64,000 bases of DNA from Gnetum montanum (lineage: Eukaryota > Plantae > Gnetophyta). The translations under genes were made by a program, and so were the position numbers. Positions 19,801-56,430 of the stretch are shown piece by piece; the first letter of the stretch is position 1, and each line of letters starts with the position of its first letter. Below the pieces are notes generated by a model. That model was given only the letters and a program-made list of their open reading frames with translations, was not told the DNA's origin and ran no database searches. The stretch covers positions 501,223 through 565,222 of the forward strand of contig MNCI01002227.1 in assembly GCA_015680685.1 (NCBI GenBank), read 5' to 3'.

Positions 19801-21600
19801 TCTCCTCAAGTGATCCAAGTGTTTCTTCTCATTAGAGGAGTACATCAAAATATCATCACAGAAGATAATACAATACTTATCAATAAAGTCTTTGAGTACA
19901 TCATGCATCAACCTCATGAATTTAGCAAGTGCATTTTTGATTATAGATGGCAACCACTCAAATAATTCATCTAATATTTTGAAAGCTATCTTCCATTTAT
20001 CACTAGGTTTGATTCAAATTTAATGGTATCCACTCTTCAAATCAATTTTGCTAAAGATCTTTGCATTGGTAAGGACATCATGAATATCATCCACAATTGG
20101 AATAGGAAACCTCTACCTCAATGTTATCCTATTCATTTCCCTAGAATTAGTGCATATTCTCCATTCATCATTGTTCTTCTTTAGCACAAGCACTACTGGA
20201 ATTTCACAAGGTGAAATGGATTTCCTCGTGAAGCCATTTGCAAGTAACTCCTCTACTTGCCTTTGAAATTATACTTATTGATTTAGTACCATCTACTATG
20301 ATCTCTCATTTGGAATGATAGCACCAACAATAAAATCAATTTTGTGCTATACATTACTCATTGATGGAAATCCATCCAATTCTTCCTTGAACACCTTGGG
20401 AAATTACTCCTTCAAGCCTAGCACACCTCTTGGAAGTTCTACCTACACGTCATCATAGTTAGTTAGCAATAATTGATTTAATAACAAATCCAAAATTAGT
20501 TTCATTATGTTCCTTAATGTATTTCCTCTCTCTTAGAAGGATTAATAAATTATTAAGTAAGCTTTACTATCTCACATATATAGCTGTCATAGGAATCAAC
20601 TCATGGATTCCATCAAGCCTAGCTACACTCCATACATTGCTTACCCAATCAAATTGAGCACCATTGTCAAAATTCCAAGGTCTACCAAGAATTAAATCAA
20701 CATAATTAATTTGAAGTACATCCCATTTTATAACATCATGAAAATTCCCAATTTTAAATTTCAAAACATATTTCTCTCTCACCTTGTGAAAGAAATCTCT
20801 TGACAACCATTGTACCTTGTAGGATTTAGGATGAGGATTAGCTACCAAACCCAATTTAGCAACTAATCTAAATAAAATAATATTTTTTTGACCTTCTTCA
20901 TCAATTAAAATATGAATCCATTCCCTACTAAGTGAACATCTAGCCCCAATTTGAAATAACAATTTTGTAGTAGGATGGTCTCCTCTATTCACATTCCTCA
21001 TGAATGCACTAGAATTTAGTTTGGAAACTTCCTTAATCTTAGGAGCATTAGGATTACCCCTTTGAAGGCCTTCACTAGATGTCTTCTCCACTTCTATTAT
21101 TTGCACATCCTTACCCTTGGCTACTTTAAGAAGTGGACACTCTCATTACTTATGTACCCATTCTCCACACTTAAAGTATTGAATCTTGGATGAGTTATTG
21201 TCTTGAACCTTATCATCCTTACCTTGGTCCTTCTTGGCTTTGCCCTTTTTATTATCCTTCTCTATCTTCTTATTATCAATGTCATCTTTGTCTTTAGATT
21301 TGGACTTAGAGCCCTTTTTTGATTTTGATCCCTTGTCTTTCTCTTTTGAAGCTTATTTGCTCCTATTTCCAAAACCATTGAGTTTCTTTGCAACCTTAAG
21401 TATCAAATCATAAGTCTCATCAAGAGTTTATGGCTCATAGAATGGAAACTCTTGCTAATGCACTATTTTGAGACCTCCAAGAAAGATTAAAGCTTGTTTG
21501 TACTCATCCTAGTTTATCTTAACATGATGGAATTGTTCATAAAATTTGATGTAAAACTACTTAACATCTTTGTCATCTTACCTTACGAAAGTCAACTTCA
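16870..21600 (-). mobile_element. Chromovirus (CRM-like) Ty3/Gypsy remnant, 5'-truncated, with 3' LTR at ~16870-17544
   Basis: Minus strand order: gag/Zn-knuckle remnant (~21.15 kb), PR (LVAKLGLVANPHPKSYKVQWL..DLILGRPW, 20567-21106), RT ([11 protein letters not shown]; IIFCDDILMYS), RNase H, integrase, chromodomain (LIHWKDQSIDDVTW, ~17640-17680), PPT GAAGGGTGGGAAAA, then TGTAGGGACACC at 17544. The left boundary is uncertain. Confidence 0.8.
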
Positions 21601-25740: not shown

Positions 25741-27158
25741 TGAAACACCACAAAATTCTGAGCTCAGTACTTCTCCAACAAAAATCAAGCTAACTCATGA
25801 TGCTCCCTAGCATGACTAAAGCTTGAGGGTCCCACAGACAGCTTCAAGCAGAGTCAAACTCAACAAGAAGCAGTTCCCTGGGACTCGCAAACGACCACGG
25901 CGACATCTGGTATCAAACATGGCAACTTCGGAGCTCAAGATACTTAGTTCTCACTAAGTATACATTCCCAGCGTATACGCCCAGCATATGCTCCCAGCGT
26001 ATATGCCCAGCGTACACGCCTCACATGTACGCTTAGCATATATGACTGATGTGTGCGCCTGACATGCAACTCCCAAAGATGGCATGGAAACAACACTTCA
26101 GAGCAATATTTTGTACAAAGCATCAACTCACGCGAACAGAGCAATCATCAGGTGTCATCATGGGCTCCAGAAAGTCAAATTTTGGTCTCGACATCATGCA
26201 TTTTGGAGTTCATACGCTGAGCATGTACATTCTGCATGCCCAGCATGTATGCCCCGCATGTACGCCCCACGTATACACCCAGCATGTACAAAGTGTATGA
26301 CCAGTATGTAGCACAATGTATACCAATCAAAGCTCTCCTGTACCGTGTCAAATCAAGGTTAACCAAGCTGAACATCTATAGGCAGCATCCTCATGGCATC
26401 CGAATTCAAATCTGAAGGTCAAACGACTTCTTTTGTTTTGATCAAGTCTGTACACCGAGGTCATATGTCCAGCGTGTATACGCTGGCGTGCAGCACGTTG
26501 TACACTTGTAAAATTTCATTCTTTCGCACTCGGTCAATGCACCACATGTCACCCGACCCGAGTCTAAACTTGTATAAAAACCCCAATTTTTCATTAGATC
26601 GGGGTGGGCAATTTTGAGCAAACTAGAGACAAAAAAAAGGAACCAGAGACGCTGAGAAACCAGAGAGCAAAGCAAAAACCCTGTACGCTGGACCTTAACC
26701 CTGCACACTGAGCATACAGCTTTCACGCTGTGCCTGCAGTTTAAACTAGTACACAATCATCCCTACGCATCCACTGGGGCTCTTCGTCCGCCTTGTGTCA
26801 GATTCACAACTGCGTTAGACCAGTGCATTGTAACTTTCAGTTTCATAATAATATTATCACATCTGTTTTGCTAAGATTTGACAGTTTTTCGTTCATTATT
26901 TCATGCTTATTACTTACGTTCCTGTACATTTATGCTCCATTTTACATTAGTTACGTTGTTTACGTATAACCCAGCATATAGTATATCGGTGTACGTTCGG
27001 GGAAATCCTTGCCTGATCTACGTGCGAACCACTCAAGGTACTCTACCTTCGTTAATTCGAGCTTGCCCTCAAGTGAAGGTAGGATCTTCTGTGCGTGTCC
27101 AGGGATCTCCAGGTTTCTGTTTCATTCCAGCCGGAGACCGACGATTTCGGACAGTACA
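25741..27158 (+). repeat. 5' LTR of copy C
   Basis: TGAAACACCAC...GACAGTACA; matches 44443-45895. I count 8 differences in the first ~230 bp, all transitions. Confidence 0.95.
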
Positions 27159-27181: not shown

Positions 27182-27299
27182 CCCGAAACTGCTTAAAACT
27201 TACTGTGCTCTCATACCCCGATCTTCCCAAACTCACACTGCATCGACACTAAACCCAGTTCTAAAATTCCCGGATCGGCATCCCGTTCTACAGAATTCC

Positions 27300-27790
27300 C
27301 AGCGTCTACGCTGCTGAGTATACGTTGTACGCTGTACGCTATAGACTTTGTCTATGCTGCTCAGTATACGCTATACGCTGTACGCTATAGACTCTGTCTA
27401 CGCTGCTCAGTATATGCTGTATGCTGGACGCTATAGACCCTGTCTACGCTGCTCAGTATACGTTGTACGCTGTATGCTGTAGACTTTGTCTACGCTGCTC
27501 AGTATATGCTGTATGCTGTAGACCCTGTCTACGCTGCTCAGTATACGTTGTACGCTGTACGCTGTAGACCCTGTCTATGCTGCTTAGTATACACTGTACG
27601 TTGTACATTGTAGACCCTGTCTACGCTGCTCAGTATACGCTGTACGCTGTAAGCTGTAGACCCTGTCTACACTGCTCAGTATACACTGTACGCTACTCTG
27701 CCTACACGTTTTAATGTATACCTGTATGCTGTCACTATACGTTGGTCGTTGAAGCCTATACGTTGAGATCCAGTCTATACGCTGTACGCA
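27300..27790 (+). repeat. 5' UTR tandem array, ~36-43 bp units (CTACGCTGCTCAGTATACGCTGTACGCTGTAGACCCTGT)
   Basis: About 9-10 units directly visible. Confidence 0.9.
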
Positions 27791-27867
27791 GCAAATGTAG
27801 GTTTACGTCGTACTAAGTATACTAGTTTCATATCCCTTCCACCGCATCATATTCACAACCATTCATC

Positions 27868-30800
27868 ATGAACACTGCAAACCCCAACGCTACAACCAAG
27901 CCAGTCACAGACATCGTGGGCACCGTGGCCGTTCAACAACCCATAGTACAACCCACAGTGGGGCCTCGTCGATCTCTCAGATTGCAAGGGAGGAACCCAT
28001 CGTTTAACATTATAACTCAGGAGCAATACAATTTCATATGCGTAAAATTACAAGCCAGCCTCGTCGTGGATCAAACCGAAATGGAGGTTAAAAGACAATA
28101 CGAACTCTTCCATAGGGAGGACATGAGTTCATCCCATCCCCGTACAATATTATCCCTCTCCTAGAGGACTACTTTTAGCTCATCTCACAACTCCTCCTAC
28201 AAAGGAGTCAGTCTCTGGACCAGCCTGTGGCAAATCCTCAGTTGGAAGAAGAGGATGACTTCGTAGCTTAGTCCGAGCATGAAGATTCGTACCACACCCT
28301 CAGCCCACGAACCTATGTAAACCTGTTGTTTCAAATCACCCAAGCACAAATACCTCAACAGGACTCATCCACGCTTATCCATATCCCTCTTGTAACCGAT
28401 GCGCAACTCAACACAGTTCCCCTTGCCATTCCCCCCATTGCAACAGTATCTCCATTCTCGTAAATACAACCTCCTCAAAATAATGTAGGAGTAACCTTCC
28501 CACCTAGAGTGATCGGGATGCCGCATGTGATACCGGCTTCTACATTCGCTCATTATATCCCATGGATCCAAACCCAAGGAGCCCCTTTTACAACTGTAAC
28601 TCAACAAGTTCAGAGTGCCCCCACACAAAGCATGACTGGCTAATGGGCAGCGATTGGTGCTCAACCATATCAACTCCCTCACTATAACATACCACCTCAC
28701 ACAATTTTACCAGCTAGCATCCCTCAAGGACAACCACAACAACAACAGCAACCCCTTGCCTACAATGTACCGCCCCTAGTACCACCCACCACAAATATTC
28801 CGCAAGCGCAGCCTCCAACCACACAACTTTCTTTCTTCCAGCCCACTGCCCAACAATCTAACCTGTATACTGTACAACATCCTCAACCTACTATCTCACC
28901 TAGTTCCCAAGACTGGGCTGATGCTAAAAAGCTAATGTAGGAGCTAACTGACGAGGTCAAATGCCTCAAGACAACCACCGACGGAGAGCTCAAGGTAGTG
29001 GACTTCTATCACGATGACCCTATCAGCTCTTCGGTTCCGCCTCTAACACTTCCCAAGGGTGTATCCTTACCCACACTGACTAAATACAACGAGGAGATAG
29101 ACCCCAACGCTCATCTCATAACGTTTAGACTAGAATACGCACTACTTCAGGCATGGCCACATGCCATTCTGCGAGTGTTCCCCATGTCCCTCGTAGGGAG
29201 AGCACTTGATTGGTATCGGGCCTTGCCATGAAACTCAATATCTTCTCTAGAGGATTTGTTGTACCAATTCGTTACCAGGTTCAAGTATAACTTGAAACCT
29301 GAAGCAACACTTGATAGCCTCATATAGGTCAAACAAGCACCTCTTGAACCTATCCAAAAATTCATCCAACAGTGGAGTGTTGCCCTCAATGAGCTCCACG
29401 AGCAGATCCCGGAGACGTATCTCCTCACCATCCTAAAAGGAGCTGTCAATGATTTTTTCAAATCCATACTATATTATCTCAATGCACATACTCTCAGTCA
29501 AGTGTTTGTACAGATCAAGAACATAGAGGAGGCAGCCCAAAACAGCCACGATCCTGCATATTCAGCCTTTAAGAATCAACATAGTAAGAAAGATAAAGAA
29601 AAGGTTAAAACAACTATAGCGGAAGTAGCGGAAACACCACAAGCGAATGTGGGATAACAAAGCAAACCCCCTATTTCCCCTACTAATTACGCTAAACCTG
29701 CTCCTGCGATGGCACCTAAATCATCCGCATCACAAAACCCAACACTGGGTCGTACGAGAAACTTCGAGAGGAAGGACCCCTCTCAATACATGCCATTGCC
29801 CATGAATCCATCGCAACTATTCGACCAACTCTTGAAAGTCAAACTGATGAAACATAAACAGTTGTCCCCTGCAGCGATCCAAAGACATGATCGGTTCTGT
29901 CAACTGGTTTAGAACCCAAGCCTGGCAACACCAGATGAGCCCCCGGTTCCAAAAGGCTTTTGAATGGATCGTTTTTGTGATTATCATCAACATAATGGGC
30001 ATGGCACTGACTATTGTTTCACCTTAAAACAAGATATCCAACGGATGATTGATGGAGGTCAAATCACTTTTGATGAAGCCAATCCGGTCCAACCACAAAA
30101 CTAGGCCATGGGTGTATATAAAGATCCTCTAAATACTAAAGAAGCACCGTATGTAATTAACACCATCTACTTCGATAATGAACCGGAAACACCTAGGATT
30201 AACACTGTCCATTCTAATCATGAGCAGAAAATGCCTAAGAAACCATTTTTAGTGCATATTCCTCCCACTGTACAAACACCTATGCCTCAACCATCATACT
30301 TCCCACAGAAACCTTATGTCATTCGAGTACCCCCCACCGTAGCAACTTCTATCACACCACTAAGTGAAAGACCATACGTGGTGTGCATACCTCCCGCCAC
30401 TGCAAGCACACAACCATCTCCTACTCGGCCTGCTCCCTACGTAGTCTGAGTGTCACCCGCGGTCGCAACTGCGAAGGTACAACCTCCAGCTAGGCCAACT
30501 CCATACGTCGTTAGGACACTCGAACGTCCTGATGACCACCAATCCTCCACTTCGCAAACACAAAATAAACCGATCCCCTATGTCATCAAGATGCCTAGCC
30601 AGCCTGACACTCAACTGCATGCCACTGTCCAACCACAACCCCGCCCTACTCCATATGTTGTACAGGTTCCAAAGCAACCTGAGGTTTGGAAACCAACTGT
30701 ACCCCCACGCCACACATGAGAACGCCTGGTAGACAGGCTTACACGGGAACGCTTGAAGAAGGAACGTCAACAATTGGCCTTAGGACCTCCCAAGCCTACC

Positions 30801-32033
30801 CTGCTAAATGCAATACCCATGACATCGCCTAACAATAAACCAAACACAGGCTATGAGGGTGAATCATCCAAAAAACATGATACGCCTAAATCAACGATTC
30901 CGGGTAAAAATGAAAAACCAACTATGCATGAAATAAAACTGTTGGGCCCGATGGACCAAATCACTATCGACAAACATACGTCCAACAGTAGAGATCTAGC
31001 GACAGCTCTAACTCAAGTCACACAGGCACTTAAACAAAAAAACACTTCATTGAGCTTATACGACCTAGTGTTAACATCTCAAACCCATTGCGAAGCCCTA
31101 GTGCGCATGTTGACTTCCATCCCAGTAAGCGAAGACTTACCTCCAAATGAACCTTCAATTCATGCGGTAGTGTACTCGCCTCAAGGGTCAACTCCTAAGC
31201 CATTAGGTTTCCACAATGACAACATCAAAGTGGATGAGAAAACGGAAGAGGTAATAGCCGCACCTATGTTCATAACGATACGAATAAATCAATTTAAGAT
31301 ACATAGAGTGCATGTAGATGATGGAGCCGCTACAAACATAGTGTCATATCCCATCGTTGAACAATTGGGGCTCACGGAGCTAATAAGACCAACCACCACC
31401 ACGTGTTTGAAGTCGTTTAGTGGATCACGCGTAATAGTCAAAGGCACCATGACTTTAGACTTTATAGCAGGGGATCAATTCCCCACATCTGTCGACTTTG
31501 TGGTCATCAATGAAATGCCAGGGTTCAATTTAATATTGGGAAGGCCCTGGTTAGCCCAACTGAAAGCAGTCTCTTCCCCCATACACCAAGAGATTCACCT
31601 GCCTTATGAAAGTGGCGAAATCATTATACACGGGGAGGCTGCTACACCTACCATCTCATCGTATACAGATACAGACCAAGGCTCAGAGGTTAAGCTCGAA
31701 GAGCCTAAACAAGATGATACAAATGAACAACAAAGATGTACGTAACCAGTAGGTGATAATCTTTTAGACACAAAGGAAAATTTACCCAACACAGAAATAC
31801 TCGGGCCTGAAATCGTACATATACAGCCTCACTTAGAAACTACAACTAACACAGAAACCACAATACATGTAGAAGCGCCAAAAAGCACCAACGCGGGAAC
31901 TATTCCATCAGACATCCCTTGGGCTGAATTACCATTTAACGTGATCAGCGAAGGAGACGCTAAATATAGAATCATACCCGTTAACGCTACTCCTAATGTT
32001 AAAATGAGAAAAATCAAAAAATTGCTAAATTAA
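27868..32033 (+). pseudogene. gag-protease of copy C
   Basis: ATG at 27868, Pro/Gln-rich N-terminus, capsid LTKYNEEIDPNAHL..FPMSLVGRALDWY, Zn finger FCDYHQHNGHGTDYC (~29970-30017), PYVVxVP repeats, PR VHVDDGAATNI..LILGRPWL, tail PWAELPFNV, TAA at 32031-32033. Several internal stops. Confidence 0.9.
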
Positions 32034-32592
32034 TAAACGACATTCAAGTCCGGAACGACGTTAAACTATCATGTCTGCAACGACATAAAACTAGTCATGA
32101 TCAGAAATGGTTGGTCTACCAAGAAATCCACCCATGTCACTTGAAACTTCCCTCGTTTATGCATGGCTCGAAATGGCCTTAAACTAGTGCATGTGGCCTG
32201 AAATGGCCTTAAATTAGACCATCTACCTACACTTTCTTTTTCTCGAAAATTCCAGTTCATTGTTTGAATTTACGCTTGCATTGTCGTGTTATCAATAACA
32301 GTCTTTGCAATTATCCTTCGCTTATAATTATATTCCTACTTACATTCCCACTTCGTGCATTACACTTAAACTACAAAACAAACCAAAACATTTTACATTG
32401 TCGTGTCATGTTTACATTTAAACTTAAAATCCACAACAAAAAAAATACGTAGAAATATATATATACATGTAGTGATATACAGTTAGACAAGTACAACAGT
32501 TAACTGATTATATTCATCCGTGCAATACAACTCAAAACATTCAATTTACGATTCACATAAAAATATGAGCCAGGGTAATTTCAAAGTCAAAA

Positions 32593-35500
32593 TTAAACAT
32601 CAGGGACGGGAGGATTGTTCCCTCCAGGCCCATCAGCACCATGAGTCCCCACTCCGGTAGGGCTACCTTCTTGGACATCGTCGTCACCTTGACCCTACAA
32701 AACGTAAAAGAAACAATCAACACAAGAACAAAAAAAGAAAAATCCCAAACATTACTCAACGAAAAAATTTCATGGCAACAAAATGCTTACCGTAGGGAAC
32801 CCCCCTAAACCGAATTCTAGTCGACGGAGAATTTCCTCCTCTGAGACGCTAGCCCAGTCAGTCCCATCAAGGCCTATATCGACATTCGCCAAGGCTTTCC
32901 CCTTGTCAATCACCGACCATGTAGGACGTTTCAAGGGGAATTCACCCACAGAGATCTCCCCAGAAGCGGTCGTAATTACCCTCATGGGCGATTCCATCTC
33001 AACAGTTGTATTCTTAGCAAAGGTATCAAACGCAGAACGTAGACCCAGACCCTCTACGAACATTTCAAGCTGGCGCTTTTCTATGGATACTTCCTTCAAT
33101 GATTTCTTGTAATGATGCTTGTGGTTCTTCTCATCCTGACCCCACTTATGCACCTTGGAAGCCAAAGCCTTCCAATCCTAGCACTTAAGATTCAGTAGAT
33201 CTATCTGGGCCTTACGCTCTGCTAGTTTCTGAGTCAGTGATGCATGGTGATTTAGCAGGTTCCAATATCTAGTATAAGTGATCTCGGAAGTTCGCCAAGA
33301 ACGATCACTTGTTAGTCTAGCTGAGGCAAACTCATATCGAGCCTTGAGATCATCACGTTCAATTGATAACTCGGAAACCTCTTTTTCATTTGCCTGGATT
33401 TGCAACCATAGTTGTTCAATGGAATGCCTACAGGTCCAAAGCAATTTGGCGTTATGCACAAGACCTTCTGCCACCTCGTCATAGACCGGCCTTGGTATCT
33501 GTTCAACTTCTGGCAGTAGTGCAAGCAAACTTTCAATACTAACAGTTTCAGATGGATCCCACTTCAACTTGGCTCCTACACACATGAAAAGAACAGACAT
33601 TAAATCTTAGATGGCAAAAAAGGAGTATGAAACTCGAAGGCTACAAAATGCTCAAGATATTTATACCTATTTCAGGGTGGGCTTGTTGAATACGTTCAAC
33701 CAACTCATCAACGATACTAGTCATGAAATCCATTTTACTTGGCATCTCGGTCCAAGTAAATGGTTCATGAGTACAAGATGGACTAGCCTCCATGGTCGTT
33801 TTAGGGGGAGCCACTTTCATGGGCACTTCCAACTGCATTGTGGGAATCGTCCTAGTTTCAATATCTTTGTCTGGAAGCGATAAAAACGTAAAATTAAAAC
33901 ATCACGTGATGGAAACAACAATTCACAAAGCAACGCAATAAAACGAAAAGGAATATACCGCTTTCTCTGTCCCCTTCCCAGTTTGGAGGATCACCAAGGT
34001 CTAATCTTCCCTTAAGGAAGCTATTGAACATTTCATCAACACCATCCCGGTCATCGATCAATTCTGTCTCCGTGGTGTCTTTCGCCAGCTCTTCTGTCCC
34101 TTCCACCTGATCTTTGCCGACCTCTTCCTCCTCAATTATTAAGTCTGTTGGAACTTCCTCCTCCTCGATAATGGTTTCTAGCTCCTGTCTCCTCACTTCC
34201 CAAGTCAAGTCTGAAGACATTAGTTTCATGTAAGCGGTCAAAACAAAAAAAATAAATAAGCTGGAAATGACAATACAATAAGTGCACCAAGCTTACTTAC
34301 CTCGAACAGGCATTTTGAATCGTATTCGCTTCACGCTTGGCTCTTCCATAGTTGAGGCCACCTCTTTAGGGCATTCGCGCTTCAGAATCTTCAATTTAGC
34401 TTTCCCGATGGTCTCCTTGATGACCCGTTTAGCTCTCTTTGCAGTGTAGTGCACATTGTTTGGTTCCAACCCCACACTGTCACGTGTATGGATTGAAGTA
34501 CTAGATGACCCCTCTGTCGTGATGGATATAGATTCATCAATCCCCTCGGGTGCATATTGGGACTCAGCTATCTCGAACAAATGGTTAATCCATGGGCGAG
34601 ATAATTGAGTATGATCCTGTAGAACATATTTATTATTCGCACGAACCACTAAAAACTCGGCCAAGCGACGTAGGTAACCTGCGAAGAATGCGAATGTAAA
34701 ATGGGATTGTGCCTCAATGTTTGAACACAATCGCACTATCTCCCTATGGAAACCCAACAACAAAAATTAGGCCCAATTATAACGCATCCTGGTTTCTAAA
34801 ATGGTTCGCATGATGCGCACGACTTCCACCCCAAGACTCTTCACTTGGGACAGGGATTTAGGAAACACCAGTGCCCTAAACAGGGGATACAATTCATTAA
34901 CTTCCACCACCTTTAACGTCCCTTGCATAGGGAATCCCTTAGAGCCCTTGACAATGCCCAACCAATCTTCTAGCTCACGCACCACATGGAGCTCTTTCTG
35001 CGCCCTGTCTAAAACCACATTCATGCCATCTTCCAGTACACCGAAGAGGTCTGAAAAGAACTCGGCTGACAGATGGAAAACTATTTTGACACCCTTAATA
35101 CGGGTGCTGTAGTAGGTGATAGAGTTGTCGAACGAATCAACAATTCCAATCATTTCAACTATAGAGACATCAGGGCTCAGGGTTGTAAATAACTCCATGA
35201 GGCCGGCGTCATCCAAACAACGGACAATAGATGGTGGGGCACTAGTACGCAACCATCGATGTGCCTTGCTGATCTCCCCAAACTTCATCAACAGGGTACT
35301 CTCAATTCGCCCTGTCGTAACAGGATCTCCACCGGGGGGACATTAACTGTAAACACAATTTAAAACCATAACACCAGTATGACCAACGTTGCAGCCAAAC
35401 AAACATACTAAAGCATCTAGGAAATATCATCACTTACCTTCAGTTGTGGGCTACGAGGTGCTAGAGCCCAAGTCAGCATCACGAGGGAAAATTGGTCCAT

Positions 35501-37006
35501 TGCGTGACCAATCTCCATGCAGCCACCCACGAGCCATGCATTGTGCAAATGCCCTGGAAAACCATTTATGGAAATGAACAATGTCACCCTTGGTCTGAGC
35601 TAATATAGCTCCGCGGAGCGTGGGACCCACCATGAAGGTCTTTAAAGCGGTATGAGCCAGTGCAAGCCCATCATCATTGATGCATATCCAATCTTTATCA
35701 ACCTGGGGCCTGCAAAAGAACAGTCATCAAAACAGGAGCAAACACAAAATGACAAAATAGAAACGACAAACTAAACGACCTTACCTCTCTACCCTGTACA
35801 CCGTGCCTGGAGGGTTCTGAAATAATGTGTGTGCACGCGCAGCTAGAAACAAGGTGTTATTGAGATAGTGAGGCCCACGTGGCAATAAGTACCACACGCG
35901 CGATAATGGACGAGTAGATCTGGGCCCTCCAGAGGGACCTTCCTCATTCGCAAGAGGTCCCTCGTAAATGTCCACCATGAAAACCATGACATCATCCAAA
36001 GATCCTGGAAACATTGCTTCGAGCATGCTCTGCGCCACTTATTCGCTTCGGTGTGACCATATCACTACCTTGAATCTGTCTAGGATGAAAGCAAGGAATT
36101 CACAGGCCCCTTCCCTGAACCATACCCCATTGTTATCAATAGTCAAATCAGGGGCAGGTTCATCAGTATCAAGGGGCCCGAACCATGCTAGTACCCCAAC
36201 CAACTTAACCACCAGGAGGAAAGGCTCAGGATCCCTGCAAATAACCAGAATCCCATGATAAGTCAACTATACACCAAAATGAAATAGAGAAATGAAATTC
36301 CACGTTGAAAGCCAATACTTCGAAAAAATCAAAAAAACTGTTTACACTCGGCGTACACCCTATCAAAAGATTGTTTACACTCGGCATACACGCTATCAAA
36401 AGACTGTTTACACTCGGCGTACACGCTATCCAAAGATTGTTTACACTCGACGTACACGCTATCAAAACACTATTTACACTCGGTATACACGCTATCAAAA
36501 GATTGTTTACACTCGGCGTACACACTGCAAAAACTGTCTATGCCCAGAGTACAGATCCTGTAAGCTGCGAAAACTATTTACGCCCAGCGTACAGATCCTG
36601 TACGTTGCGAAAACTTTTTACGCTCAACGTGCAGACTCTGCATGCTACCAAAATTGTTTACGCCCAACCTGCAGACCCTGTACACTGCGAAGCCCGTTTA
36701 CACTCAACATACAGATTTTGCACGCTGTAAAAACTATCCACGCTCAGCGTACAGACCCTGTACGCTACCAAAACTGTCTACGCTTAGCGTACAGACCCTG
36801 TATGTTGCCAAAATTATCTACGCCAAATAATAAGTACAAATAAAAAAAATTAACTGAGGTAAGATTAGAGCCTACCTGTGTGTCGATCTAGGCCACGATG
36901 GAATCCTAGGCCTAGGCAAACACTGTAGTATGGCCTCACTTTCCTCCACGAAAGTCAAGTTGGGCCCCTTCCTCCCTTGGCCTTCTACCTCCTTACCCTT
37001 GCCCAT
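32593..37006 (-). pseudogene. Antisense 8-exon accessory gene of copy C (~1080 aa: FCP1/NIF-like pseudo-phosphatase, PMD/plant-transposon-like domain, acidic region, coiled coil)
   Basis: Exons: 37006-36876, 36234-35785, 35709-35438, 35346-34301, 34210-33959, 33870-33667, 33575-32791, 32694-32593. All introns are GT-AG with phases 2,2,1,1,1,1,0 that join in frame. One 1-nt loss in a C-run at ~35335 and a few internal stops. Confidence 0.88.
36330..36830. repeat. Tandem arrays (33-bp then ~40-bp units) inside intron 1 of the antisense gene
   Basis: AAAGATTGTTTACACTCGGCGTACACGCTATCA x~6, then AAAACTGTCTACGCCCAGCGTACAGACCCTGTACGCT-like x~7. Confidence 0.9.
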
Positions 37007-37124
37007 TCTGGCATCCTGTACGCTAACCTCACACGCTTATGCTGGGGTTTGCTACTTTACGCTGACACCGGGGTTTGCTGCTCTACGCTGACGTTGGGGT
37101 TTGCTGCTTTACGCTGACGCCGGG

Positions 37125-38648
37125 TGTACTGTCCAAAATCGTCGATCTCCGGCTGAAATGAAACAGAAATCTAGAGATCTCTGGACACGCACAGAAGACC
37201 CTACCTTCACTTGAGGGCAAGCTGGAATTAACGAAGGTAGAGTACCTTGAGTGGTCCGCACGCGAATCAGGCAAGGATTTTCCCGAACATACACCAATAT
37301 ACTGTATGCTGAGTTATACGTAAATGGCGTATAAGCGTAACTAATGTAAAACGGAGCATAAACGTACAGGAGCGTAAGCAGTAACATACAATAATGAATG
37401 AAAGACTGTAACAAATTTTAGCAAAGAAATGTAACAATATTATTGTGAAATGAAAGTTACAATGCATCGGTCTAACGTAGTTGTGGCTCTAGCACAAGGC
37501 GGATGAATAGCCCTGGTGGATGCAGGGGTGATTTTGTGTTGGGTTTAACTGCAGGCACAGCATAAAGGCTGTATGCTTAGCGTGTAGGGTCAAGGTCCAA
37601 TGTATAGGGTTTTTTCTTTGTTTTTCTTAGCGTCTCTGGTTCTCTTTTTTTTTCTCTAGTTTGCTCAAAATTGCCCCCCGGTCTAGTGAAAATTGGGGGT
37701 TTTATACAAGTGTAAACGTGGGACTCGGGTTTTGAGAGGGGATGATTAGCTATGGAGCGCTGGATTCTCGGGTCAGGTGACATGTGGCGAGTTGACCGGG
37801 TGCGAAAAAATGAAATTTTACAAGTATCAAGCGTGTTGCACGCCAGCGTATGCACGTTATACGCCAGGGTATACAGCTGTACGCCAGCGTATACACGCTA
37901 GACATATGACCCTGGCGTACAGACTTGATCGAAACAAAAGAGGTCATTCGGCCCTCAAATTTGACTTTGGATGCCATGAGAATGCTGCCTGTGGATGTTC
38001 AACTTGGTTGACCTTGATCTGACACGGTGTTGGAGAATTTTGATTATACATTATGCATGTTGGGCATATACGCCGAGCGTACACACTGGGCGTACACGTT
38101 GTTTATCTTGGACGTATACGCTGTGAATGCATGCTGGGCGTATACGCTATATCTGCTGAGCATATACGCTAAGCGTGGAGGATGTACATGCTCAACGTAT
38201 GGACTCCACAATGCATGATGTCAACACTTGATGATTGCTCTGTTCGTGTGAGTTGATAATTTGTACAAAATCTTCCTCTGCAATGCAGTTTCCATACCAT
38301 CTTTGGAAGTTGCATACTGGGCGTATACATCAATCACACATGCTAAGTGTACATGTGAGGTTGTATACACTGGGCGTATACGCTGTATCTGCTGGGCATA
38401 TACGCTGGGCGTATACGCTGAGAATGTATACTTAGTGAAGACTAAGTATCTTGATCTCCGAAGTTGCCATGTTTGATACCAGATGTCGCTGTGGTCGTCT
38501 GCGGGTCCCAGGGAACTGTTTCTTATTGTGTTCGACTTCGCTTGAAGCTGTCTGTGGGGCCCTCAAGCTTTAGTCATGCTAGGGAACATCATGACTTAGC
38601 TCGATTTTTGTTGGAGAAGCACTAAGCTCAGAATTTTGTGGTGTTTCA
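37125..38648 (-). mobile_element. Solo LTR of the C/D family nested in copy C, reverse orientation
   Basis: Reverse complement of TGAAACACCAC...GACAGTACA. TSD CCGGG (37120-37124) / CCAGG (38649-38653). It splits a ~29-bp GGGGTTTGCTGCTTTACGCT array (37030-37124 and 38649-38850). Confidence 0.92.
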
Positions 38649-38930: not shown

Positions 38931-39360
38931 ATCGTCGCCGCCTTTCATTTTTTATTAATATTTTATTAATTTTAGTTAGAAATTGTTCAAAATACAAAGT
39001 ACGGGGAAAATGCAGAAGAAAATGATGAGATAATAAACACTACCACATATCATATTCCCTGGTAAGCCAATTTCGATTTCCCGCACTAAACATTTTGGCG
39101 CAAACTCTTCCGTACAGATCATACAGCAACTAGGCATCATCAAATCACACGTACGGCTCGGTAAGGCCTTAAACTGCCACATACGGCCTGGTAAGGCCTT
39201 AAACCGCCACATACGGCCCGATAAGGCCTTAAACTGCTATGCGTCCCAGTACAATGATAAACCACCATCGTACATGTACACATGATTTACGTTGCCAAGG
39301 AACGCGTAATAACACCTACTAGCTCACTCTGCCCTCTATTTATTGGCAGGAGCAAGCCCA

Positions 39361-42300
39361 ATGGATTATTAGTATTTATCCACACCATTGACCATCGATG
39401 GACCATACAGAAAGATTACAAGAGAAATCGACATAAATTTCATCAACTTAGGGTTATCAACGGACGACACAATCATAACCTCAACACAACAAACGCTAGA
39501 CAGCTACAAAGGTATGACAAAGTCCCTCGACATAGAAGCTGATAGCATCACCGAAGACTCGTTGACTGAAACTCCCATCGCTATGCCTGATGGTGAAATC
39601 AAGATATTAAAATTGAGTACATTATTGCAACCTCAATTGGCCAAAGACATAGAATATGTGCTTCAAGACAACATAAAAGCATTCCCTTGGTCTTACACTA
39701 ATATGCCCGGGTTAGATCCTCGAATCGTCCAGCACAATATTATACTCGATCCAAAGTTAAGGCCAATGAAACAAAAATCATGAAAGGTTAAGCCTGAGGT
39801 AGCATTAGCAGTTCGCAATGAGATCACCAAACTCTATCAGGCAGGTTTCATTCGGGCTGTAGACTACGTTGATTGGGTATCCAACATGGTCATTGTCCCG
39901 AAGAAGAATGGAAGCATTCGCCTATGCATTGACATCCAGGACCTCAATGTTGCGACCATAAAAGATGATTTCCCCCTACCCAGCATCGATCAACTTGTTG
40001 ACTCAACCGCTGAGCACGCCTTGCTATCTTTTATGGATGGCTTCTCAGGATATAACCAGATACGCATTAACCCAGAGCATCAGCTCCAGACTACCTTTAT
40101 GACACCATGGGGTACCTTTTGTTACACAATGATGCCCTTCAGTTTTAAGAATGCTGGGGCCACATATCAAAGGGCAATGAAATTTATTTTTAGCGATTAT
40201 ATGCTACATTCGCTCAATGATTATGTAGATGATATTGCAATTAAATCGAAAACACTAGAACAACACATCCAAGATTTAGATTTGATCTTAAAACGTTGCT
40301 TAAAATATGAACTTAGGCTCAATCTAAAGAAATGTGTTTTAGAAGTAAAAACGGGCACGATGCTAGGCTTCATAGTGTCAGAAACAGGAATACGGGTGGA
40401 CCTAGATAAAGTTAAAGCTGTTATCAATTTAAAACCACCAAGCAATATTACCGAACTTCGGGGTCTACAAGGTAGATTACAGTTCATCAGGCGCTTCATA
40501 GAAAAATTGACGGACAAGTTGAAGCCCATGAATCATTTACTACGAAAGAATGCCCATTTCGAATGGACTCCACAATGCCAAGAAGCTTTCAACCACATTA
40601 AGATAGCACTAGCTCAGTTACCAATAGTGTACCCTCCAAAGAACAATAAACCTTTCTACATTTATCTTACCACGTTGGATTCGTCCATCGCTTCAATGCT
40701 CTGCCAGAAACGAGACGATGGGACCGAAGTCCCTGTTTATTATTTGAGCCATGCATTAGTGGCCCACGAAAAGAAGTACAATGAGGTGGAGAAGTCATGT
40801 TTAGCCCTTTTCTTTTCCCTAAAGAAATGGCGAAATTACCTCTTCCATAACCAAGCCAACATAATCTGCAAAGATAATGTGCTTAGGGCCATCACCAGTA
40901 ATATTTATGAGTCAAGCAGAATAGAGCGTTGGAAAGCCATAATAGCCGAATTCGAGCTACATTATATAGCGTAGTCATCAGTCAAGGGTCAAGCCATAGC
41001 GAATCAACTAACTACATCACCAATACACGATCAAGCAACAGTAGAGCCAGAGTTTCCAGACGAAAACATAAGCGCGATAAACATAGTTCCCGATGAGTAT
41101 GAAGCTATTTTGAACTTTGATGGAGCATTCACCTCTCAAGGGGGGAGTGCTGCTGCCGTCATCACCTATCCCTCTGGGGAGATCTGACCCTTTGCTTACC
41201 GCTTCAACTTTCATTGTACCAACAACATAGCAGAATACGAAGGTCTCCTTAGGGGCCTTACGACAGCATTAACTTCCAACATCACACGACTCGTGGTCAA
41301 GGGAGACTCACAACTAGTTTTAAACTAAGTCACAGATGTTTATACATGCAAAGCACAACATTTACAGCCATACTGTGACTTAGCTAAACATTTACTAAAG
41401 CGATTCGAAAACATGGATGTGCAACATGTCTCCAGAAATGATAACACCATTGCAGACGCACTTGCCACGCTAGCTCTAAACATATCACCTGATATGTTCC
41501 ATATGTTTCCAAGCTCTATAATCAGTTGTGCTAAACCCATAACTGATACTCTCGATGAATTACCAATTGCATCCGTTAGTACAACATACGCAATAGAATG
41601 GTATGACGACATAAAAGAGTACCTTCTACGTGGTGAAACACCGCAACATTTAACGAATGCACAAAAGGACGCAGTACGAAAACGTTCTTGACAATATGCA
41701 TTGGTTGGGGACACATTGTGTCATCGATCCTATGAAGATGTATTGCTAACGTGCGTTAGTAGCGTTGATGCCCAAAACATCGTCGAGCAAGTACATGATG
41801 GACTATGCGGAGGACACATAGCACCTAAAGCAATGGCGACGAAAATAAGACGTTTAGGCTATTATTGGCCACACATGGAGTATGACTGTCTCTCTAAGGC
41901 TAAAACGTGCAGTGTCTATCAAAAACATAGTAATCTGATACATGTTTCACCAAATGAGTTGCATACAGCGCAAATCACCTGGCCCTTTCAAAAGTGAGGG
42001 TTGGACCTTATCGGACCAATAACACCCTCATCTTCTGTAGGGCATAGCTTCATCATAATCGCTACAGAGTATTTCACGAAGTGGGTAGAAGCTGTTCCCC
42101 TTAGAGAAACCACATCCAAACACATATGCAACTTCATCCTTGAAAACATTGTGACTCGTTTTGGCATCCCCATGACCATCATCACTGATAATGGACCACA
42201 ATTTAGCAGTGCTGAAACCAGAACTTTCTGTGAAAGCCTAGGGATCAAACACTCATTTTCATCCCCTTATTACCCTCAGAGCAATGGGCAAGCTGAGGCC

Positions 42301-42837
42301 ACAAATAAAACCATCATTACAGTACTTAAAAAGATGCTTACCCAAAACTTAAAAAGATGGCATGAACAGCTAGTATACGCGCTGTGGGCTTATCGCACTA
42401 TGCATCGGACTTCCACAGGTAAAACACCATATAGTCTTATTTATGTTTCAAAAGCTGTTTTACCCTTGGAATTACAGGTACCATCCTTAAGGATCACACT
42501 TTCCGGACTCCTCGACGAAGGGCAAAACAATGACCTACGCATTATTGACTTGGACTCGATGGAGGAGGAACGCATACGTGCACTCGATAAGATTGAATGG
42601 TATCAAAAACAACAATGACAACGCCATCGGCACGATGTTCATAAGCACCCTATCAAGGAAGGCGACCTTATGCTCAAAGCCATTCGGGAACACCCAGACA
42701 AATTCTCAGCCAACTGGGAAGGGCCCTACTTGGTCACCAAAGTGTATGACAACGAAGCATTCAAATTAGTTGACATGGAAGGGAATGACCTTGTAAATCT
42801 GACCAATCACTTGTTCTTGAAACCGTTCCATGTTTGA
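39361..42837 (+). pseudogene. pol: Stand-alone pol of copy C: RT - RNase H - additional (archaeal-type) RNase H - integrase; no protease
   Basis: Single frame of 1159 codons with ~8 point stops and no frameshift. SFMDGFSGYNQI, YVDDI, LNFDGAF..CTNNIAEYEGL..VKGDSQLV..HVSRNDNTIADALA (aRH), H..GGH..C..(Y) Zn finger, WGLDLIGP-type core, ITDNGPQF, NGQAE, WEGPY. Confidence 0.95.
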
Positions 42838-42864
42838 CCATGGACTCAGGTACATTTTCATCCT

Positions 42865-43230
42865 GGCTTCATGACAGTCAACTAATACCACAACTCGTCC
42901 TAGCATCATGATGGTAAATTGATACCACAGCTCGTCCTGGCATCATGACGGTAAACTGATACCACAACTCATCCTAGCATCATGATGGTAAACTGATACC
43001 ATAGCTCGTCCTGGCATCATAACAGTAAACTGATACCACAGATCATCCTGGCATCATGACGGTAAACTGATACCATAGCTCGTCCTGGCATCATGACGGT
43101 AAACTGATACCACAACTTGTCCTGGCATCATGACGGTAAACTGATACCATAGCTCATCCTGACATCACGACAGTAAACTGATACCATAACTCGTCCTGGC
43201 ATCATGATGATAAACTAATACCATAGAATG
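42865..43230 (+). repeat. 37-bp tandem array after integrase (ATCATGACGGTAAACTGATACCACAGCTCGTCCTGGC) x~10, decaying to ~43450
   Basis: Directly visible. Only ~3 units in copy D (52420-52525). Confidence 0.92.
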
Positions 43231-44429
43231 TCCGCAATGAAAATAAACTAGCACCCATCCGGTACGATAGTAAACTGCCACAGTCACATTCACCAGAGTT
43301 CGCTAAGACTATAAACTGGTTTGCCTCTTCATGGTCCACCAAGACTAGAAACTAGCAATGTACCATCCGCCACGACGCTAAATAGGCAATGTCCAACTAG
43401 TCATGACATAAAACTAACCCATGATATTCAGCCATGACTATAAACTGGAAATTTCATCTCTAGTTCCTCGATCTGTGGTTGCATTCAAACTTCATCAGAG
43501 CCGTTGCCTCACTTGTCATTAGCCGATCCTGACAACATTGTTGCTATTCATATATAGTGCCTGAAATTTCATCTGTTGCCTTAATTTCATCAGTAGTTGT
43601 TCAAGTCTAAGCTTGTTTACTCACTCATGGTTTTCTTGTCTTCTTGGAGTTGTCTTTGCAGGATGACACTTAGAGGTGTTCGTACAAGAATGCACTTCAT
43701 CACAGCAACAAGGTAATATATTGTTCATAACACACGTGACAAGACAAATCAAGCCATTCACCAGTACATCTTCCATTACATACCCCACCTACCCCTCAAC
43801 ATCGTCCACTTAATTACATCCTGGACACACCCAATACAACCTAAAAAATTGAACACACTGTCGCACACTACACCACTCTTAAGCAGTTGCAACCCACAAC
43901 ACGGCATCTGAGCATGCACCAAAAAAATCATGGCCCTTCCCATATAAGCCCTTGGCGGGAAGGTAGTTTCCGTGAAAGAAAATTCTTATGTCTCAAACGA
44001 TCAAGTAACATCTCGTTGCATGGCTTTGGCTCTCCGCCAACAAGTTCCCTCGAAACATTAAATAGAGACCCTGTTCCTCCAAAGAACGCAACACCTCATC
44101 ATGTGGCTTTGGTTGTGCCAACAAGTTCTCTTACACACCAAGCAAGAGTCTTGTTCTGCCAAAGGATGCACGTCTCATGTCTTGATTCTAAGTCTACAAT
44201 CACTATTGACAAGGATCAGCATAACCCGTATACACACCAGAGCATCCCCTTTATCATTTTCCAATCCCCACAATTTCCATTTCCCTATCCAGCTACAAAC
44301 TTAATGTACTACTGGACACGGTGCGATGACATCTGGTCAAGTGTCAAAGGAAAATACTACTAAGTTGCTTGTGTGGTGTTTTGTACTTCTTTGTCGACGC
44401 CTCTCGGGTCGATTCCTCCAAGCATCAAC

Positions 44430-44442: not shown

Positions 44443-45895
44443 TGAAACACCACAAAATTCTAAGCTTAGTACTTCTCCAACAAAAATCGAGCTAACTCAT
44501 GATGCTCCCTAGCATGACTAAAGCTTGAGGGCCCCACAGACAGCTTCAAGCAGAGTCAAACTCAACAAGAAGCAGTTCCCTGGGACCCGCAGATGACCAC
44601 AGCGACATCTGGTATCAAACATGGCAACTTCGGAGCTCAAGATACTTAGTTCTCACTAAGTATACATTCCCAGCGTATATGCCCAGCATACTTTCCCAGC
44701 GTACACGCCTCACATGTACGCTCAGCATGTATGACTGACGTGTGCGCCCGGCATGCAACCCCCGAAGATGGCATGGAAACAGCACTTCAGAGCAAGATTT
44801 TATACAAAGCATCAACTCATGCGAACAGAGCAATCATCAGGTGTCATCATGGGCTCCAGAAAGTCGAATTTTGGTCTCAACATCATGCATTTTGGAGTTC
44901 ATACGCTGAGCATGTACATCCTGCATGCCCAGCGTGTATGCCCAGCGTGTCCACCCAGCATGTATGGCCCGCGTATACGCCCGACATATACGCCCAGCAT
45001 GTACAAAGTGTACGACTGGTATGTAGCACAATGTATACCAATCAAAGCTCTCCTGCACCATGTCAGATCAAGGTTAACCAAGCTGAACATCTACAGGCAA
45101 CATCTTCATGGCATCCGAATTCAAATCTGAAGGTCGAACGACTTCTTTTGTTTTGATCAAGTTTGTACGTGGAGGTCATACGTCCAGCGTGTATATGCTA
45201 GCATACAACGTGTATACGCTAGCGTGCAGCATGCTATACACTTGTAAAATTTCATTCTTTTGCACTCGGTCAACCCGCCACATGTCACCCGACCCAAGTC
45301 TAAACTTGTATAAAACCCCCAATTTTTCACTAGATCGGGGTGGGCAATTTTGAGCAAACCAGAGACAAAAAAAGGAACCAGAGACGCCGAGAAACCAGAG
45401 AGCAAAGCAAAAACCCTGTATGCTGGACCTTAACCCTACATGCTGAGCATACAGCCTTCATGCTGTGCTTGTAGTTTAAACCAATACACAATCGTCCCTG
45501 CGCATCCACTGGGGCTCTTCATCCTCCTTGTGTCAGATTCACAACTGCGTTAGACCGGTGTATTGTAACTTTCAGTTTCACAATAATATTATCACATCTA
45601 TTTTGCTAAGATTTGTTATAGTTTTTTGTTCATTATTGCATGCTTATTACTTACGTTCATGTACGTTTACGCTTCGTTTTACATTAGTTACGTCGTTTAC
45701 GTATAACCCAGCGTACAGTATATCGGTGTACGTTCGGGGAAATCCTTGCCTGATCCACGTGTGGACCACTCAAGGTACTCTACCTTCATTAATTCCAGCT
45801 TGCCCTCAAGCGAAGGTAGGGTCTTCTATGCATGTCCAGGGATCTCCAGGTTTCTGTTTCATTCCAGTTGGAGATCGACGATTTCGAATAGTACA
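44443..45895 (+). repeat. 3' LTR of copy C
   Basis: TGAAACACCAC...AATAGTACA followed by TSD CACCA. Confidence 0.95.
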
Positions 45896-45900
45896 CACCA

Positions 45901-48900
45901 CAACAGGAAGGATTACATTCCATCCTCATATGACCAAATACTCGTAAGTGACATTCATGTGAGTATCTTGGCCCACCTAATTGAGATGGATGAGGAGGAC
46001 CAGAAGTCCACCTCAAATGGGCAACCAAGGAATGAAGATGAATTTGGGGTGGATTCTAAGCTTGAGAACCAAATAGGAGGGCTTTTCCAACAAGACACCC
46101 CTAAGGCCACAATAACCACCTCCATCCCCTTCATCTCTTTCATAGGGAATGTTCCACCATCTTCATCACCACCTTACATGACCATGTTCAGACTTACACT
46201 AGTCATAGCTATGCACCAAGCACAATTGACACTATAGTCTACCTCATTCCACTTCTCCATGTTGTTTGCCACTTAGCCTAGGTTTGCACAATCCTCATCA
46301 AGGGCTACCACTATTGCCAATCCTATGACCATCCAAATGAGGCCCACCATGGGACAACAAGTAACCTGAGGGTCATGTACCTATTTTTTTCCATTTGTGG
46401 CACAAATATTAGCACAAACATCATTTTTTGTATTTAGCCATATATCACTATAATAACTCAACCTTTTCCCTCTATTCCCCAAGCCATAACAAGACCAAAT
46501 ACTTCACAACTTATGCCTCAACCCTTTGTTAAAACCCCACAATTGATAGGGGTACCCCAAGGACTGGATCAAGCTTTCCAAATGACCCAAGACTTGACTG
46601 AAGAGTTAAGGGAGCTTAAAGTCCCAACGTCCTAGACCATAAAGATAATGGACTTTTACCAAGATGATTCTATTAGTCCTATGGTCCTACCACTAACTCT
46701 TCTTCCTAGTGTCGTTGTGCCACACTTCACCAAGTACAATGACAAAAGTGATCTGAATGCACATTTGATAACCTTTTGCTCTGAGTGCTTAATGTTGCAA
46801 GCATGGTTGCATATAATTATGCGGATTTTCCCTATGTCTCTAATAGGAAAATCACTTGACTAGTACCATGGCTTACCAAGAGGATCCATATCCTCTTTGG
46901 ATGAACTAATTTCACAATTTGTTAATCATTTCATGTATAACTTAGAACCTAATACCACACTTGACCAACTAATGAAGGTCAAGCAAGAACCCCTTAAGCC
47001 AATGTAGAGGTTCATCCAATGATGGAATGCTCTTCTTGACAAGATATCATAGTGTATAGCTAAAATACATCTATTAGTTATCTTCAAGAGGGTGGTTAAC
47101 AATTTTGTAAAGTCAAAATTATGTTATCTTGATCCATGGTCTCTTATTCAAGCCTTTTTCTAAACTAAGAATATAGAAGATGTCATAGAAGCCAGCCATG
47201 ATCCTACCTACATCGTATATAAAAATCAACATGCATGTAAAGACAAAGATAAGGGTAGGTAAAATAATGTAGCAGTAGCAACCATGACTAAGGAAACTAA
47301 ACCAACTAACCAAGGGTTGAAGACTTACCAACCCAAGACCCCTGCTGCTAGCAATAACGATTAACCCTCTACCTTTGGGGCCACTACATTGACTATGTCT
47401 AGGCCTACCTTCACATAGAAAGACTAGTCAAAATATACCAAGTTTCCCCTTAAGCCATCAGAGCTTCTAGACCAACTATTGAAGAGCGATAGAATCCAAT
47501 ACAAGAAAATGACTGAGATTACCCATAAGAGGCATGATAGGTTATGTGAGATAGCAAAGGACCCTAAGCGAGAAACTAAGGATGACCCTCCAGTATCAAA
47601 ATACTTCAAGCTTAATCACTTTTGCCATTACCACCAATTTCCAGGTCATGATACCATTTTTTCTTTACACTCAAAGATGACTTGCAAAGGATGATCGTTA
47701 GGGGTGAACTAGTATTAGACACTTCAAACCTGGTTAAGCCTTAGAACTAGTCAATGCAAGTATCTAAGGACCCATTATATGCTAACAATAGTTCATACAT
47801 TATATCATCATTCAATGTTGATGATAATTGGATGCCTACAAGGGAACCATTCTTTATTCGGGGACCCTTCACAACAAAAGGGACTCTTTAGCTTTTACTA
47901 GATCAAGACCCTATTTTTTTGTAAGGGTACCATCACAAATGTTTCTTAAGGAGCCTTTTGATCAAGGTACCCTAGCCCTTGATAGCACAACCTACCCCAA
48001 CAATAAAACAACAACCCCCCATGGTGGCCAATGTAATGCCTTCTTCCTTGCAACCAACTAGGGATAATAAGAAATCCCCAACCAAATAATGGAAAAAATC
48101 TATGTAGAAAGCCAATAACAACAATGATAAGTAGGCCAAGTTAGGGAAGGAAGTGGATCTATTGAAGCCTACTTCCATATCATCTATTCCCATGACTTCC
48201 ATGATCCAAGATGCCTCAACAAGTAAACCACGAGAAGAACCAAAACCCCAAGAAGAAAAGAGAAAGGCTAGGCCACAACAACCCAAGGATGAATTTTGTA
48301 TTTTGGAGCACATGGAGGAAGTTAGAAGCAACAAATTAACAATTAATAATAAGGAATTCCTGAATGCAATGGAACATGTTAAGAAATCTCTCAAATAAAA
48401 GAACACAACCTTGAGCTTGTATGACTTGGTCATTACTTCTGTTGCTCACCATGAGGCATTGGTTAAGATGTTGACCTTCATTCCTATTAGCAAGGACGTC
48501 ATTGCTAGCAAAGAGTCTATCCATGTAGTCATGGTAACCTCTTCTTCCAAGAAATCAAACTCAATATTGCTAGTGTTTCGCAATAGTAAAATCAAGACAA
48601 ACCCCCAAAATGACAAAGTAACTAAAGCTCCTCTCTTTATAACCATACGGGTTGGGCAATATAAAGTACATAGGGTACATGTAGATGATGGACTGGTAAC
48701 CAACATCATACCTCATACTATTATTGAACATTTGGGCCTCACAGAACAAATGCAACACATGATGACTTTAGCCCTTAAATCCTTTAATGGATCATGGGTT
48801 GTGGTCAAAGGCTCCATTTCTTTAGATTTTGTGGTAGAGGAAGATCTTAGCTAGTCCAATTGCAAGTTGTGTCTTCACCTATTCACCAAGAAATCCACTT

Positions 48901-49207
48901 TCCTTATGAGGGAGGTGAAATCATTATTCATAGTGATAGTGCAGCCCCTTTAGCTGTTAACAACATTAATGTAGAACAAGGGTCCAAAGTGGAGTTTCAA
49001 GAAGAAACTCCTACTATTTGCCATAAAATCAAAGGAAGTGATATAGCAAAAGAGGCTAAAGTAAATAACGATAAACCCATTGATGAGCTATGGGGAGAGC
49101 TCCCATTCAATGTTGTTAGTAAAGAAGATGGAGAATATAAATTGGTGCAAAATAGACCATACACATTTCCCAATCTCTCAAAGATTAGGAAACACCTGCA
49201 TAGGTGA
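45901..49207 (+). pseudogene. gag-protease of copy B (continuation after the C insertion); B is cut again at 49978 by copy D
   Basis: FTKYNDKSDLNAHL..FPMSLIGKSLD, FCHYHQFPGHDT, LSLYDLV, VHVDDGLVTNI, LWGELPFNVV. Confidence 0.88.
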
Positions 49208-56033: not shown

Positions 56034-56430
56034 CGGGCTTGCTCCTACCAATAAATAGGGAGCAGAGTGAGCTCGAAAGGGCTGTTACGCTTTTCTAGTC
56101 AATGTAAATCATGTGTACATTTAACAGTGGCTAAGGTATGCGGTGGTAGTTTATCGTCGTGCCTGGGCACATGGCAGTTTAAGGCCTTACCGGGCCGAAT
56201 ATGGCAGTTTATGACATCTAGTTGGTTGTATGATTTGTACATGGTTATTGGATGTGAGACTATCAGATGAGGAGTTTGCGTCAAAATGTTTAGTGTGGAC
56301 AACTAGAATTGTTTCGCAAGAGAATATGGTATGTGGTAGTGTTCATTATATCGTTATTTTTATTTTGCATTTGCTCATACTTTGTACTTTGGTTAATTTT
56401 GAATAAATTGAATAAAATATTCAAGGTGGT

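Follow-up and report, generated by a model that had tools for sequence, protein, structure and literature searches.

What is a phosphatase-like domain doing in a gene that runs antisense through a plant retrotransposon, and could it still act as an enzyme? The domain is encoded by exon 2 of the gene (36234-35785, minus strand; 450 nt, bounded exactly by AG and GT) in the 64,000-nucleotide stretch of DNA analysed here (the window), and had been predicted to be a catalytically dead member of the FCP1/NIF family that might bind the phosphorylated CTD of RNA polymerase II (Pol II) or another phosphoprotein. The reading we favour, with moderate confidence, is that exon 2 specifies a NIF/FCP1-type HAD domain that lacks its catalytic residues, is under purifying selection and is likely to serve as a non-enzymatic protein-binding module in the antisense gene.

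The retrotransposon that carries the gene (element C) begins with a 5' LTR (25741..27158, plus strand; TG..CA ends, TSD CACCA, followed by a PBS-like site) and ends with a 3' LTR (44443..45895, plus strand) that matches the 5' LTR at 1302 of 1403 aligned bases. Between them lie a decayed gag and protease (27826..32033, plus strand) and pol, with RT, RH, aRH and integrase (39373..42618, plus strand). We take the PBS-like site to resemble tRNA-Asn, and Asn sites make up 4% of those in Retand, 15% in TatII and 12% in Athila, whereas Arg or Lys is the prevailing type in Ogre/Retand-like Tat elements. An RVT_3 match between RT_RNaseH and integrase occupies the aRH position, and the element is of the Tat type of Ty3/gypsy, with the order given for Ogre/Retand (gag, protease, RT, RH, second RNase H, integrase) in the part of PMC6317226 used here. 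The family is a high-copy plant family. Protease and RT are 7.3 kb apart, and the antisense gene lies between them (37006 to 32593, minus strand; ~1,080 coding codons). An inverted element (D) and a distant one (A) have the same layout as far as the window reaches; the gene again lies between protease and RT in D (56866-61030, exon 2 on the plus strand), and in A it lies behind protease, downstream of that element's own gag-protease (~8854-12474, exon 2 on the minus strand). A solo LTR of the same family (37124..38648, minus strand; near-perfect 5-bp TSD) is found upstream of exon 1; it is oriented with the antisense gene and sits between a TATA-like box (~38900) and exon 1. The window also holds an unrelated decayed Ty3/gypsy element (18194-21142, minus strand; RT and integrase at 27% identity) and a gag-protease fragment akin to copy A (46345-49207, plus strand), which ends before the antisense gene, beside the LTR of element D.

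The gene in element C has eight exons, all on the minus strand. Exon 1 (36876..37006) opens with ATG and supplies 43 codons in a phase that fits exon 2, exon 3 (35438..35709) has one stop, and exon 4 (34301..35346), interrupted by one stop and, close to its start, by a 1-nt gap, encodes a domain of ~260 residues and a basic tail. Exon 5 (33959..34210) is acidic (35% D+E) and is followed by exon 6 (33667..33870), by exon 7 (32791..33575), which is coiled-coil-like (weak matches to coiled-coil families) and has one stop, and by exon 8 (32593..32694), which contains the stop codon. All seven introns are GT-AG, with matching phases when the gap in exon 4 is allowed. Exon 2 has one internal stop (36041-36039) and the gene four in all; the copies in D and A are broken too, so that all copies in the window are dead. 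Exon 4 is 32% identical in copy A; a word-indexed protein search with it returned none of 2459 candidates, Pfam gave no match to PMD or Transposase_28, and a fold model from three sequences had a pLDDT of 30, with uninformative results from Foldseek and from a PDB-profile search. By eye, exon 4 may be PMD/Tr28-like. Copies C and D share the position of a stop codon in exon 4 (34767-34769 and 58839-58841; TAA, TAG), by shared ancestry or repeated deamination. Tandem repeat arrays (units of 33, 40, 46 and 37 nt) are present in intron 1 (36300-36845), after the PBS (27236-27727) and after integrase (42784-43264).

Of 1067 reads in four RNA runs, none was 99% alike to copy C, so that the reads come from other copies; 18 were 95-99% alike. 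Depth over the exon 2 bins in run X11 was 1.4-8.5 in one direction and 0.5-0.9 in the opposite direction; in three bins of intron 1 it did not exceed 0.08. Poly(T) loose ends were seen at 32366 in X11 and X12, close to where the transcripts of relatives are polyadenylated. With library strandedness assumed, the reads point to minus-strand polyadenylated RNA from relatives. Intron 6 (33576..33666) is the only intron seen spliced in these reads (13 of them, 3 in X14 and 10 in X15); the RNA joints listed include none for introns 1-5, and one loose end hints at an unspliced intron 2. Exon 2 depth stayed below 1 in X12, and no read lay at the exon 2 start in X13. In X11, further loose ends with poly(A), around 32706-32745, fall in an A-rich intron and were treated as low-complexity matches.

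Homology and fold of the exon 2 domain

The window carries three copies of the exon 2 domain, that of C, that of D (57370-57819, plus strand; 71% identical to C, one stop) and that of the distant copy A (12474-12030, minus strand; ~30% identical, two stops and a frameshift). Every motif quoted in the original prediction is present in the translation of exon 2 of copy C, for which NIF is the sole Pfam family match (E 1.9e-4, 21.6 bits, slightly below the cut-off of 21.8); NIF is also the top match of copy D (E 0.0023). When a profile of the three copies was compared with 1.84 billion proteins, 53 were retrieved at E ≤ 1e-3 and all 53 proved to be NIF proteins above the Pfam cut-off, with a top E of 1.1e-12 (two domains summed). 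Hosts named among them, from the 20 names looked up, were Sphagnum, Asteraceae, Heracleum, Cyanidium and Chytriomyces. A host profile built from the 53 matches found only the three copies in the six frames of the window (71.7, 69.7 and 17.7+12.7 bits; next -4.3), against a maximum of 3.0 in 1000 shuffles, although these window scores are inflated since the profile was built from matches to the query itself. Profile-profile comparison with a protein of the Sphagnum cluster gave a probability of 91.6% over 135 columns, and the three-copy profile matched UBLCP1 alone in the PDB (E 0.028). The N-terminal ~25 residues of exon 3 weakly extend the NIF profile.

A fold model of the domain was obtained with a pLDDT of 84.6. 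All those listed of its 22 Foldseek matches at E ≤ 1e-3 were NIF-family chains, with SCP1, CTDNEP1, Fcp1, UBLCP1 and Tim50 among the matching folds; superposition on SCP1 gave a Z of 12.9 and an rmsd of 2.4 over 130 aligned residues. As 37 of the 39 rows of the alignment behind the model were hosts, the HAD fold is compatible with the domain, not independently proven. Pfam, the blind profile search and the fold model agree that exon 2 is a homologue of NIF/FCP1-type HAD phosphatases, as predicted, and the Pfam and Foldseek checks proposed at that time returned a NIF match and, from this host-rich alignment, a HAD-like fold.

Word-indexed protein searches with exon 2 confirmed none of 427 and none of 25 candidates, and none of 68 pattern matches from a metagenome scan was confirmed. 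None of the 53 profile matches, 17 of which were inspected in full and 20 by name, was recognisable as the product of an element. Matches of exon 2 to pTAC12 (E 0.02) were lost once the profile was used and were taken as chance. Five Asteraceae host proteins (P0007, P0008, P0009, P0011 and P0016) have tandem NIF domains, and in the second domain motifs I and IV are likewise degenerate; two of the five are fused to DUF724.

Catalytic residues and selection

As had been predicted, the nucleophile position is occupied by K, E and E in copies C, D and A, respectively, and the position two residues further on by V in all three. The disarming goes further than motif I, to which the prediction had been confined. 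The nucleophile, D in 58 of 61 host domains, the motif III Lys (60 of 61; R, H and C in the three copies), the first motif IV Asp (59 of 61; A, A and G) and the second (48 of 61; A, A and H) are replaced in all three copies. At motif II, Ser is present in C and D, and A has L at a position that adjoins its frameshift. The +2 position of motif I is N in 51 of the 61 host domains and D in 4, and +3 is G in 56, and the change at +2 in the element was probably one of N to V. The loss had been described as ancestral, which holds in that it predates the divergence of the three copies; it is old, being common to all three subfamilies, which are 32% identical in exon 4. The nearest relatives form a DxNG subfamily, so that the donor itself probably lacked the second Asp. 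Among 36 columns conserved in hosts, C and D retain 19, mostly in the core, and the 17 that changed include the catalytic ones.

In three species-labelled DNA runs, the nucleophile codon began with G in 2153 of 2179, 4564 of 4629 and 1401 of 1413 of the depth. Contigs from these runs (282, 489 and 309) sample relatives at least 80% alike and drop rare variants, and in them the other two bases of the codon had no variant, and no Asp codon occurred, at 3%. The Glu codon accounts for ~99% of the relatives' depth (48, 64 and 44 contigs), and Val is invariant at the 3% level. Glu is the residue of the family at the nucleophile position and Lys is private to copy C. The K/E difference is the sole amino-acid variant at 3% in the motif I core, and 15 of the 20 variants listed for the contigs are synonymous.

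Comparison of C with D gave a dN/dS for exon 2 of 0.19 (bootstrap 0.12-0.31), with 0.62 and 2.27 for its two other frames; within the exon, the middle part is less constrained (0.32). Values for the other exons were 0.05-0.28 (exon 1, 0.10; exon 3, 0.11; exon 4, 0.13; exon 6, 0.28), with exon 5 saturated, and those for RT and integrase, used for comparison, were 0.13 and 0.14. All of these are Nei-Gojobori estimates from two sequences and include changes due to decay after insertion. Judged from these sequences, exon 2 is under purifying selection slightly weaker than that on RT, a level of constraint also expected from a purely structural role.

Possible partners of the domain

If the domain no longer acts as an enzyme, what could it be retained for? 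A role as an inactive CTD reader, binding the phosphorylated tail of Pol II and shielding or recruiting polymerase at the element, is suggested by the top fold matches of the domain (SCP1, CTDNEP1, Fcp1 and UBLCP1), by a motif II Ser kept in C and D together with a Glu held at the nucleophile position, and by the fact that a role in transcription would suit a retrotransposon. Fold ranks mirror solved structures only, however, and the groove that takes up CTD proline in SCP1, given as F106, V118, L155, Y158 and R178 in the part of PMC7281111 used here, is absent. By profile-bridged mapping, approximate in loops, F106 corresponds to P, P and T in C, D and A, L155 to S, Y158 to V, L and M, and R178 to I, I and N, and V118 to a gap, as it sits in an insertion missing from the family of the element domain; none of the five groove residues is kept. 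Hosts of the DxNG subfamily likewise lack them. These nearest relatives are not phosphatases of the Pol II CTD; of the structures solved so far, UBLCP1, which a title cited in PMC7281111 describes as a proteasome phosphatase, scores 68.8 bits against 35.8 for SCP1. We therefore consider CTD binding improbable and depart here from the original prediction. Its alternative, binding of another phosphoprotein, fares little better as far as the old pocket is concerned, since the phosphate- and Mg-binding Lys and Asp pair are lost, which also weighs against the CTD. The same losses (Ala-Ala or Gly-His at motif IV and no Lys, hence no Mg ligands) make it very improbable that catalytic activity is retained, or has been gained through the conserved Glu, even though that Glu is held across three subfamilies and the DxNG hosts are themselves atypical.

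Binding of element RNA or of an RNA-protein complex, for export, packaging or splicing of the long spacer between protease and RT, appears quite unlikely, with a little more in its favour than CTD reading. CCCH zinc fingers are joined to two of the 53 relatives and DUF724 to two, and in C and D pol is preceded by a site that resembles a splice acceptor; yet exon 2 is acidic (K+R 7%, D+E 13%), the fusions are few and the family is not known to bind RNA. The acceptor-like site consists of a branch-point-like motif, a pyrimidine tract and AG, then an in-frame ATG (39320-39350, plus strand, in C; ~56046-56075, minus strand, in D), and as far as such signals can tell, the antisense gene could be nested within a sense intron like that of Ogre; downstream of protease, no conserved splice donor was found. 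Unlikely too, though less so than RNA binding, is that the domain is a folded spacer alone, selected for the stability of the accessory protein and having no partner of its own. The location of the kept residues, mostly in the core, and the looser middle of the exon would fit such a role. Against it stand the motif I core, invariant at 3% except for K/E, and residues identical in the three distant copies and rare in hosts (V12, T136, L137, F138, Q139, Y146 and V148). A stretch just after motif IV that the copies share, TLFQNPPxTxYxV, is unlike the host family and is a candidate for a new surface.

The non-enzymatic binding module that we favour would go back to an ancestral element of the Tat type that acquired the domain from a NIF gene of the DxNG subfamily and placed it, as a fusion, at the N-terminal end of its accessory protein. 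This protein, of ~1,080 residues, would comprise the pseudo-NIF domain, an unassigned domain, basic and acidic stretches and a coiled coil. Since the RNA that is packaged is of the opposite strand, the introns of the gene would persist through retrotransposition. By analogy with the PMD-CC and Tr28-CC proteins known from other Tat elements, the accessory protein is probably nuclear and acts in trans for the family. The dead domain would probably dock a host or element protein through the putative surface after motif IV, with sustained transcription of the element or RNA processing as the likely purpose.

Origin, known parallels and significance

The closest relatives of the domain by sequence are the DxNG NIF proteins, an atypical subfamily (PF03031) found in land plants, a red alga, a chytrid and eukaryote or viral contigs, with which it is collinear over ~140 residues (E 1e-12 to 1e-3). 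Like them, it keeps W, NT, NP and core residues; unlike the hosts, which retain D, K and DD, it is without these and sits in a retrotransposon gene. Plant and non-plant members are alike in identity, 22-26% at best. The phylogeny with host FCP1-homology proteins that had been called for left the domain on a long branch, unplaced in two quick trees (P0022 was dropped as a fragment, and the second tree used 33 of 64 rows); a grouping with land plants was not rejected (p-AU 0.75). Capture from a cellular gene would be the simplest reading of these sequence relations. The literature searched yielded no functional study of the subfamily, and the parts of PMC10924621 and PMC5485742 consulted were uninformative.

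Reuse of the NIF fold without phosphatase activity has a parallel in fungal Tim50, whose non-catalytic NIF domain is described as a receptor in the part of PMC6686227 used; Tim50 is a cellular mitochondrial receptor of another subfamily, and for the element the lack of activity is predicted. With Fcp1, SCP1, CTDNEP1 and UBLCP1 the modelled domain has the HAD fold in common, whereas DxDxT and the CTD groove are missing. PP7L, of the MAIN/MAIL1-PP7L complex, is presumably inactive. That complex pairs a mobile domain with a phosphatase, according to the part of PMC7156037 consulted. Orchid Ty3/gypsy elements have captured an AlkB domain (PMC9289625, in part), likewise an enzyme domain of host origin that became fixed in an element related to Tat; there catalytic residues and activity were kept, and here the catalytic residues are lost.

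Antisense eORFs of Tat elements are of the PMD-CC (Ogre, TatIII) and Tr28-CC (Retand) kinds in the portions of PMC4408406, PMC6317226 and PMC11963269 considered. The gene resembles them as a conserved antisense accessory gene with a coiled coil on its C-terminal side, tandem repeats nearby and an aRH between RH and INT, and since exon 4 is without an assigned family the likeness is one of position and architecture. It differs in its eight exons, its place between protease and RT, its lack of a PMD or Tr28 match and its N-terminal pseudo-NIF domain. Surveyed eORFs are single ORFs 5' of gag or 3' of pol in the part of PMC6317226 considered, and the position and seven introns of the gene fall outside the eORF classes there. 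The domains named for plant element eORFs in the parts covered of PMC7264820, PMC11963269, PMC9289625 and PMC6317226 are PMD, Tr28, Athila ORF1, LOG-like, AlkB and others, with no NIF domain and no eORF between protease and RT among them. The CDD table of PMC6317226 (E ≤ 1e-10, at least five elements) has no NIF entry, at a threshold that the exon 2 domain would miss, and no published account of a NIF/FCP1-type domain in retrotransposons was found in the literature searched.

What, then, does the domain offer? Here there is an identifiable cellular ancestor, a clean loss of catalytic residues with the fold kept, selection like that on RT and expressed relatives. To our knowledge, the additional genes of plant LTR retrotransposons mostly lack a recognisable origin or function. 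The domain is a small, well-folding handle on how large Tat elements deal with their host. We advance only tentatively, as a possibility rather than an expectation, that this is a new Tat lineage with a spliced antisense gene in the spacer between protease and RT, whose disarmed copy of a host phosphatase is a decoy or adaptor that hijacks the phosphatase's partner against silencing. The domain is also a route into a little-known eukaryotic phosphatase subfamily, and the decoy, if real, would reveal the function of the DxNG phosphatases.
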